A DNA stretch of 64,000 bases from a virus. The first letter of the stretch is position 1; each line of letters starts with the position of its first letter. This document shows, piece after piece, positions 11,777-12,142 of this stretch. The notes under the pieces are model-generated. The model saw only the letters and a list, made by a program, of their open reading frames with translations, was not told the DNA's origin and made no database searches. A program made the translations under genes and the position numbers. The stretch covers positions 42,165 through 106,164 of IMG/VR virus record IMGVR_UViG_3300045747_000694, one strand, 5' to 3'.

Positions 11777-12142
11777 TGGAGGCGCCGGGAATCGAACCCG
11801 GGTCCGACGAAGCTTGCAACACGACACTACGAGTGTAGCGAGTGTCCCCTCGCTGGTCCTGCGGTACACCCCGCGGGTCTTAGCGCCCAGGTGAGGTGCC
11901 TACTCCTGGGTGAGCGGTTCTTGTATGACGCTGCATCCCCTACCAGAACGTCTCGAGGTGCAACGGCTGAGCTCTCGTGGTCTCAGCTCACAACAGCTGC
12001 GGCCTCTACGCCGCTGCCAGCTGCTGCGCGAACATGGGCTCGTTGGCACATGTGGTGGTCGGCTCTTGGTAACGGGGCCTGCTGACCAACCCCCGACTCG
12101 CATCGTGTTCTGGGCACTCGCCGTCGAAGCCAGTTCGCCCCC
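11777..12142 (-). ncRNA. ssrA: tmRNA (SsrA), predicted tag ANEPMFAQQLAAA
   Basis: 5' GGGGGCGAACUGGCUUCGACGG. 3' GGACCCGGGUUCGAUUCCCGGCGCCUCCA, with a G3:U wobble in the acceptor stem. In-frame GCC AAC GAG ... GCG GCG UAG at 12047-12006. 366 nt. Confidence 0.85.

Follow-up and report, generated by a model that had tools for sequence, protein, structure and literature searches.

The stretch analysed here, hereafter the window, comprises 64,000 nucleotides (positions 42,165 to 106,164) of IMG/VR virus record IMGVR_UViG_3300045747_000694, and carries a gene for transfer-messenger RNA (tmRNA, the product of ssrA). ARAGORN reported a single tRNA-like gene in the window; it is a minus-strand tmRNA (11776..12142) for which the predicted tag is ANEPMFAQQLAAA. 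The Rfam covariance model RF00023 matched 11774..12142 of the same strand across its entire untruncated length (model positions 1-374 of 374) with 105 bits and an E value of 5.6e-40, compared to a gathering score of 47 bits, and tmRNA was the sole Rfam family detected within the window. Based on ARAGORN and Rfam together, the mature RNA spans 11777..12142 (minus strand), or 366 nt from G1 to the discriminator A. A first-pass annotation of this DNA, which named no strand, had proposed a complete 366-nt SsrA situated among phage-type genes, and the agreement of ARAGORN with the full-length covariance match, in which the model did not fail, confirms that observation.

The structural elements that the annotation had pointed out, namely the 5' end, the G3:U wobble and the T-arm, were each read directly in the sequence. 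The 5' end, GGGGGCGAACUGGCUUCGACGG, occupies positions 12142-12121 of the minus strand. Within it, GGGGGCG (12136..12142) forms the 5' strand of a 7-bp acceptor stem with CGCCUCC (11778-11784), followed by the discriminator A at 11777. The acceptor pair G3:U70, which is the identity pair of alanyl-tRNA synthetase (AlaRS), is present. The T-arm, CCGGG-UUCGAUU-CCCGG (11785-11801, minus strand), was found by direct reading as well as in the Rfam alignment and the fold, and the minimum free energy fold reproduced the acceptor stem, the long helix 2 and the T-arm. As had likewise been noted, CCA is not encoded: CUU comes after the discriminator, such that the gene reads A-CUU. An encoded CCA is dispensable for membership in RF00023, since it can be added post-transcriptionally. 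The pseudoknot 1 (PK1) region, UUGGUCAGCAGGCCCCGUUACCAAGAGCCGACCA (12056..12089, minus strand), bears a motif common to Myxococcota host tmRNAs and 20 viral contigs, UUGGUCAGCAGGCC.CGU...AGC.GACCA, which is kept in host and phage copies alike; the PK1 columns of RF00023 were aligned with high posterior probability, the pseudoknot pairing itself not being scored separately. Directly 3' of the tag stop lies the helix 5 hairpin GCUGAGACCACGAGAGCUCAGC (11966..11987, minus strand). Apart from the encoded CCA, the window gene has the sequence and structure that define RF00023.

The tag reading frame runs from the resume codon GCC to a UAG stop at 12006..12047 (minus strand; GCC AAC GAG CCC AUG UUC GCG CAG CAG CUG GCA GCG GCG UAG) and encodes 13 residues ending in LAAA, compared to the common ALAA. 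An A is present at position -4 relative to the resume codon (A-UGU-GCC), and in Escherichia coli the A four bases 5' of this codon sets the frame (the A86 rule; PMC2481249). The -1 triplet is UGU (12048-12051, minus strand).

The same locus is found in a second viral genome. The closest relative of the window is the IMG/VR contig IMGVR_UViG_3300045971_000895 (198,259 bp; loci L012 and L140), whose AAA ATPase is 96% identical to that of the window, and which shares with it the order tail fibre, radical SAM, 220-aa protein, SLT-domain protein, tmRNA, 231-aa protein, 200-aa protein and GGDEF protein. Its tmRNA (L012, 9512..9909) scored 100 bits in Rfam and is 74% identical to that of the window over aligned columns, while the neighbouring proteins are 45-86% identical; divergence of the tmRNA is in step with that of the proteins around it. 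Window positions 21976-22121 correspond to 196328-196475 of the relative's contig and window position 23690 to its position 14. The window therefore passes through both ends of that contig, which fits a circular or circularly permuted complete genome and places the tmRNA inside a phage genome of ~200 kb.

The remainder of the window is phage-like on both sides of the tmRNA gene, and its GC content is even (0.61-0.68). On the low-coordinate side are a gene for a 2026-aa tail fibre (1625-7705, plus strand) that contains collagen triple-helix repeats (1.2e-30) and ends in an S74 intramolecular chaperone domain; a radical SAM gene (7702-8826), which overlaps the tail fibre gene by 4 nt; and a gene for a head-decoration-like protein. 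The high-coordinate side encodes GGDEF, GroES-like and ligase-like proteins, a GH108 endolysin, the AAA ATPase and a class II ribonucleotide reductase. Most of the remaining open reading frames (ORFs) had no family match. A domain scan of ~65 window ORFs returned no integrase, recombinase or SmpB; one ORF, at 26239-27492 and 14 kb from the tmRNA, matched a PHROG family labelled transposase. Probes of 29 nt and 20 nt from the tmRNA 3' end, allowing up to 3 mismatches, matched only the gene itself across the 64 kb, and thus the window holds no att-type duplicate. Both features that define an ssrA integration site, an adjacent integrase and a direct repeat of the 3' end, are therefore absent within the 64 kb. 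The presence of phage genes on both sides and of the same locus in the relative, with tmRNA and neighbours diverging together, identifies the gene as phage cargo. The first-pass annotation had favoured phage cargo over a host attachment site, and synteny in the 198-kb relative, the absence of an integrase, the unduplicated 3' end and the 20 viral contigs all agree with it.

The genes immediately flanking the tmRNA lie on the same strand. Upstream (5') is a gene for a 231-aa protein with a Q/P-rich C-terminus (12190..12885, minus strand), an ORF with a third-position GC content of 0.91; the protein had no Pfam or PHROG match and a pattern search did not find viral relatives of it, while a homologue of 57% identity occupies the same position in L012/L140. 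Between this gene and the tmRNA, five bases 5' of the latter, is a 9-bp hairpin (12148..12174, minus strand), of which the 3' arm and the leader are kept in L012 as far as the alignment extends; it is possibly a processing or boundary element. Downstream (3') is a gene for a 185-aa lytic transglycosylase with an SLT domain (11126..11683, minus strand; Pfam SLT 2.1e-08; PHROG transglycosylase/endolysin) that is 86% identical in L012. The 94-nt spacer separating it from the tmRNA contains a small conserved hairpin and the ribosome binding site GGAGG, and is free of a terminator.

Hairpins also mark the outer borders of this three-gene unit. On its 3' side, beyond the SLT gene, a terminator-like hairpin followed by CUUCUUUCUU (11053..11094, minus strand) has a tail that the terminator scan accepted under its T-run rule, and is kept in L012, where one G:C pair has become U:A by compensatory change. 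On its 5' side, 3' of the gene at 12994-13596, the hairpin GAGAGUCCUG/CAGGACUCUC followed by UCUUU (12932..12958, minus strand) has a weaker tail and was not called by the scan; it too is kept in L012 with compensatory changes. The ~45 nt that follow it are highly conserved in L012 and represent a candidate promoter. DNA identity to L012 reaches 82-90% in the intergenic segments 12886-12931 and 11040-11130, compared to protein identities of 45-57% for adjacent coding regions. Since conservation is stronger in the intergenic than in the coding sequence, regulatory signals are suggested, possibly including a phage promoter. The first-pass annotation had described an intergenic box family on either side of the tmRNA (11047 and 12920). 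The GGCTAA plus purine run does recur exactly at 11049 and 12923 (plus strand), but a repeat search did not join the two sites as a family, and as an argument for phage cargo the boxes are weak. We rejected the view that they mark a mobile unit, as they coincide with the terminator-like hairpins that are conserved with compensatory changes in L012. They are best read as putative terminators bounding a unit in which the tmRNA would be co-transcribed with two phage genes.

Comparison of related tmRNAs indicated selection on the RNA. The acceptor stem reads GGGGGCG/CGCCUCC in the window and GGGCCUG/CAGGUCC in L012, a difference of three compensated pairs, with G3:U70 and the discriminator A kept. 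All 17 resolved phage-type tmRNAs retain the 7-bp acceptor stem, G3:U70 and the discriminator A (for L147 the acceptor parse was spurious, and the coordinates given by Rfam were used instead), and G3:U70 is likewise present in 4 of 4 resolved host-type tmRNAs. Across the 17 phage tmRNAs, compensatory acceptor changes fall at positions 4-6, and the T stems differ yet stay fully paired. The readable tag ORFs of the relatives are open and short with alanine-rich ends, and full-model Rfam scores of the five closest relatives examined were 100-120 bits. Compensated stems together with open, alanine-ended tag frames indicate that the tmRNA is not a decaying relic.

A search of IMG/VR for the PK1 motif identified 20 viral contigs with this type of tmRNA, most of them 100-260 kb in length, and many of these tmRNAs lie beside tRNA arrays. 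In a more distant relative of the window, the 209-kb contig L150, the tmRNA is at another locus. In both L150 and L161 it adjoins a DUF3150 gene rather than an SLT gene. The 68-kb viral contig L013, whose SLT protein is 78% identical, starts within the 3' part of a tmRNA (positions 1-71), ~1.2 kb upstream of the SLT gene; the contig may have broken here during assembly because phage and host do not differ in the tRNA-like end. A related viral contig of 110 kb (L205) has 37 tRNA genes at 444-15015, one of which has the anticodon CUA (called tRNA-Pyl by ARAGORN) and is a possible amber suppressor. DNA searches with window positions 9000-15000 and with the tmRNA against 50,697 GenBank phages returned no match. 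With the AAA ATPase as protein query, cultured phages yielded relatives of no more than 38% identity, indicating that the window phage has no cultured relative. In a paper on Myxococcus phages Mx1 and Mx4, tmRNA appears only by way of the ARAGORN reference.

We looked to bacterial tmRNAs for the source of the gene. A GTDB pattern scan, which was biased to tags starting with ANEP, yielded 6 real tmRNAs in at least 120 matches; among the matches listed, the tags were ANEPMALAA in a Myxococcales metagenome-assembled genome (MAG) and an Anaeromyxobacteraceae MAG, ANEPLALAA in two Nitrospirota MAGs, ANEPVALAA in an Acidobacteria MAG and ANEPSYAMAA in a Chitinivibrionales MAG. Compared to the two Myxococcota MAG copies (JASGHJ010000002.1 and JAJZQX010000001.1), the window tmRNA is ~73% identical overall, its first 22 and last 34 nt (to 11774, at the ACUU end) are identical, and its tag is longer than their ANEPMALAA. 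Since the ACUU end is present in the MAG tmRNAs as well, the missing CCA is a trait of the host group, whose tmRNAs end in CUU, CUC or CUA.

A metagenome scan for PK1 together with ANEPM returned 44 contigs. In 38 of these the tmRNA is 340-352 nt long and shares 86-98% of its nucleotides with the copy of the Anaeromyxobacteraceae or of the Myxococcales MAG, with the tag ANEPMALAA, the resume codon GCG and the -1 triplet AAC in every case and a contig GC content of 0.65-0.77; the flanks of several match a Myxococcales MAG chromosome. The tag start ANEPM is thus common to the window, these 38 host-type tmRNAs and the 2 MAGs. The other 6 contigs group with the viral copies as a faster-evolving set in a rough neighbour-joining tree. 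Two of the metagenomic contigs, L173 (330-760) and L194 (1-322) from metagenome WNGL01, contain tmRNAs that are 96% identical to one another and carry the tag ANEPMINMSAAAA. Their setting (GC 0.69-0.72; histidine kinase, PMT-type glycosyltransferase, RibD_C and cupin/CMD neighbours) makes them look bacterial. A strong terminator lies 3' of the L173 tmRNA, and the sequences of the two contigs cease to match precisely at the tmRNA 3' end, a pattern expected where islands integrate repeatedly. The helix 5 of the window, with the signature GCTGAGACYACGAGAGCTCAGCCGT, is common to the tmRNAs of L012, L173 and L194 and differs in the ANEPMALAA host type; the same division holds for the -1 triplet, UGU being shared with L012 and L173.

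Homology to the resume region, which is conserved, served to read the tags of the relatives, since ARAGORN mis-calls some of them: it missed the L012 tmRNA, despite its Rfam score, and, by choosing a different frame, assigned L161 and L173 tags that are not plausible. ARAGORN-only surveys of phage tmRNAs will therefore under-count and mis-tag this group. In addition to those of the window and of L173/L194, the tags were ANEPMINMAAAAA in L012, ANEPMINMAQAAA in L161, ANEPMQQLAVA in L149/L171, ANEPMQQLQAA in L167, ANEPMVSLRAVA in L147 and ANQPMVNEFRAAA in L150. Phage-type tags thus start with ANEPM or ANQPM and are variable thereafter (FAQQLAAA, INMAAAAA, QQLAVA, VNEFRAAA). Eight distinct variants were read, of which 5 belong to the window or to viral contigs; the C-termini of all 8 are AAA, AVA or QAA, never LAA. 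An exact-tag pattern search of IMG/VR returned no match. The window tag had been described as atypical, and it is indeed longer than the canonical form; its first five residues, however, are those of the host tag ANEPMALAA, and the near-identical ANEPMINMSAAAA occurs in two bacterial-looking contigs. The long tag may therefore have been inherited from the host lineage rather than invented by the phage.

Taken together, these findings make it very probable that the window gene is a functional ssrA belonging to an uncultivated tailed phage of ~200 kb, most likely captured from a Myxococcota (Anaeromyxobacteraceae-like) host and passed on vertically thereafter. On this model, the phage tmRNA would be co-transcribed with its phage neighbours and excised by host RNase P and 3' nucleases, the host CCA-adding enzyme would complete its 3' end, as the host tmRNA also needs, and host AlaRS would charge it with alanine by way of G3:U70. 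SmpB and EF-Tu would then carry it to ribosomes that stall during infection on mRNAs that are broken or lack a stop codon; the phage presumably relies on the SmpB of its host, since none of its own was seen. Translation would resume at GCC and append the 13-residue tag, freeing the ribosome and marking the product. The likely gain to the phage is a maintained supply of free ribosomes while decay of host mRNA and host shutoff create stalled complexes.

Several observations fit this model less well. No SmpB domain was seen in the 64 kb examined of the ~200-kb genome; a tblastn search with an E. coli SmpB query likewise gave no match, but neither did it match at the host loci, and it had no positive control, so that it carries little weight. 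ARAGORN found no tRNA genes in the window, nor were any found in ~70 kb of the closest relative (four loci, two of them overlapping), while most other phage tmRNAs identified here adjoin tRNA arrays. A scan of 9000-15000 for sigma-70-like promoters found none, although another type of promoter is conceivable. The -1 triplet UGU is deleterious when introduced by mutation into E. coli tmRNA, where it increases reading in the -1 frame (PMC2481249), yet it is natural in the lineage of the window. Finally, the host is assigned from tmRNA similarity alone, among the matches listed by searches that were biased to ANEP tags.

It is also conceivable, but in our estimation unlikely, that the tmRNA works and that its adaptive value lies chiefly in the altered tag, ANEPM being kept while ALAA is replaced by a longer AAA or AVA tail. 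Rescued products would then differ in their degradation from those tagged by the host tmRNA, being broken down more slowly or through another protease or adaptor. The ClpX protein of E. coli reads the terminal LAA-COOH. All 38 host-type tmRNAs specify ANEPMALAA despite nucleotide identities of 86-98%, and the eight variant phage-type tags lack an LAA end, both of which are as this explanation would predict. The presence of ANEPMINMSAAAA in two contigs with bacterial neighbours argues the other way, as long AAA-ended tags may be a trait of the host lineage that the phage copied. Extended to the whole lineage, the idea is that the tmRNA has been retuned, with ANEPM and any adaptor contact it makes retained and the host degron ALAA giving way to fast-evolving AAA, AVA or QAA tails; we regard this broader version as equally doubtful. 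Were it true, phage trans-translation would not only free ribosomes but also alter the fate of the tagged products, amounting to a viral rewrite of a host protein quality-control signal.

A role as an anti-host decoy, in which the phage RNA would compete for SmpB, AlaRS or stalled ribosomes and so block or divert host trans-translation, appears quite improbable. There is a precedent in the ssrA of mycobacteriophage DS6A, a phage-borne tmRNA derivative consisting of little beyond the tRNA-like domain; molecules of this kind act as tmRNA inhibitors, perhaps through titration of SmpB (PMC4131195), and the lack of a phage SmpB in the window means that the host protein must be shared. Unlike the DS6A fragment, however, which is thought to be inhibitory, the window RNA is full length, and its PK1, the A at -4, the 13-codon ORF with its stop and helix 5 are kept in relatives. 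A decoy needs no maintained reading frame ending in alanine codons.

We place still less weight on the gene being a decaying, now functionless relic of a captured host gene. Phage-type tmRNAs do sit on long branches relative to the host clade in the rough neighbour-joining tree, their pseudoknot 2-4 region is poorly conserved, and ARAGORN misses or mis-reads several relatives. Nevertheless, pseudoknots 2-4 are known to be replaceable (PMC2481249), the Rfam scores of the five closest relatives, the paired stems and the preserved tag ORF described above are not those of a relic, and the tmRNA has been kept at this locus although neighbouring proteins in L012 have diverged to 45-57% identity. Least credible of all is a host ssrA caught between two independently integrated elements that used the tmRNA 3' end as attB: tmRNA genes are classic integration targets (PMC12595487, PMC3029335), the tRNA-like ends are identical to those of bacterial MAG tmRNA and the L173/L194 similarity breaks off at just this point, but the ~65 window ORFs scanned include no integrase, the 3' end is unduplicated in the 64 kb, GC content of the tmRNA region equals that of the phage genes, host types differ in length (340-352 nt), tag (invariant ANEPMALAA), contig GC (0.65-0.77) and sequence (~73% identity), and the tmRNA and the genes on either side of it occur in the same order in the relative whose ends the window bridges. 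Judged by this genome context, which the first-pass annotation had named as a check, the two-element reading fails. Prophages and islands at the ssrA 3' end resemble the window in that tmRNA sequence adjoins phage genes; in such elements, however, a gene for a tyrosine integrase adjoins the 3' end, which recurs as a direct repeat at the opposite border (PMC12595487), and the 64 kb contain neither feature.

A functional phage-borne ssrA has precedents. Phage tmRNAs are documented in the cluster C1 mycobacteriophages Bxz1, Catera, Cali, ET08, Rizal, ScottMcG and Spud, as well as in phage Wildcat and Bacillus phage G (PMC4131195, PMC1475703, PMC4472892). Like the window gene, these are full-length, one-piece tmRNAs of large (~150-500 kb) tailed phages that carry translation-related cargo. 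In contrast to these, the window type is Myxococcota-like, and the window phage has no DNA similarity and no close protein similarity to any cultured phage; moreover, Bxz1-type phages have ~30 tRNAs, whereas the tmRNA of the window stands alone among protein genes with no tRNA in 64 kb. Metagenomic huge phages have also been reported to carry tmRNA and SmpB (Al-Shayeb et al. 2020, PMC7162821), and resemble the window phage in being uncultivated, ~200 kb in size, from environmental metagenomes and in having a tmRNA detectable by ARAGORN. Al-Shayeb et al. interpret the huge-phage tmRNAs as serving ribosome rescue during infection and, in the passages considered, include no per-lineage analysis of tag or origin, whereas here the tmRNA could be traced to an Anaeromyxobacteraceae-like type and a syntenic locus; conversely, the SmpB reported there was not seen in the 64-kb window. 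The ssrA genes of Anaeromyxobacteraceae and Myxococcales have the same ends, PK1 motif and ANEPM tag start as the window copy, from which they differ in length (340-352 nt compared to 366 nt), helix 5 and pseudoknots 2-4.

Because tmRNAs of large phages have been known since the Bxz1 genome and were found again in huge phages, the general picture is unchanged. What is new here is that the origin is Myxococcota-type, that the tmRNA stands by itself in an operon and does not belong to a tRNA array, and that phage tags vary while the host tag is invariant. The window thus provides a well-supported phage-carried tmRNA from a Myxococcota-type host phylum and from a phage lineage without cultured relatives. 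The occurrence of the same tmRNA type in 20 large viral contigs makes it a usable host-prediction marker for them, and the invariant host tag set against variable phage tags opens a simple test of whether phages alter the trans-translation degron.

Several other genes of the window deserve mention. An 881-aa protein (30687-33332, minus strand) matched MVP_shoulder (2.5e-27) and Vault_3 (2e-09) and had no PHROG match; related large phages encode homologues, of which that of L202 is 90% identical, those of L003/L150 51% and those of L203-L205 41-48%. For a phage to encode a vault-like shell protein is unusual. There is also cargo of a signalling type: the GGDEF diguanylate cyclase (14081-14926, plus strand; 1.8e-35) is 76% identical in the closest relative, and the window additionally encodes a stand-alone response-regulator receiver domain (59300-59704, minus strand; 5.7e-23) and a hemerythrin-domain protein (36669-37112, minus strand). 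A 334-aa ORF with a weak HNH match (22155-23159, minus strand) adjoins a 146-aa ORF (23434-23874, minus strand) with a short family A DNA polymerase match (2e-05) under the cut-off. The 22155-23874 region may hold a polymerase gene split by a homing endonuclease, and the arbitrary ends of the relative's contig fall at this polymerase/HNH region (window ~22.1-23.7 kb). Finally, a cluster at 48667-52581 (minus strand) comprises DUF3150, a 184-aa ORF, DUF1257 and a 531-aa AAA ATPase (phrog_8638, 2.5e-129); among contigs of 177-209 kb, its order is kept in the distant L002 and L011 and rearranged in L003.

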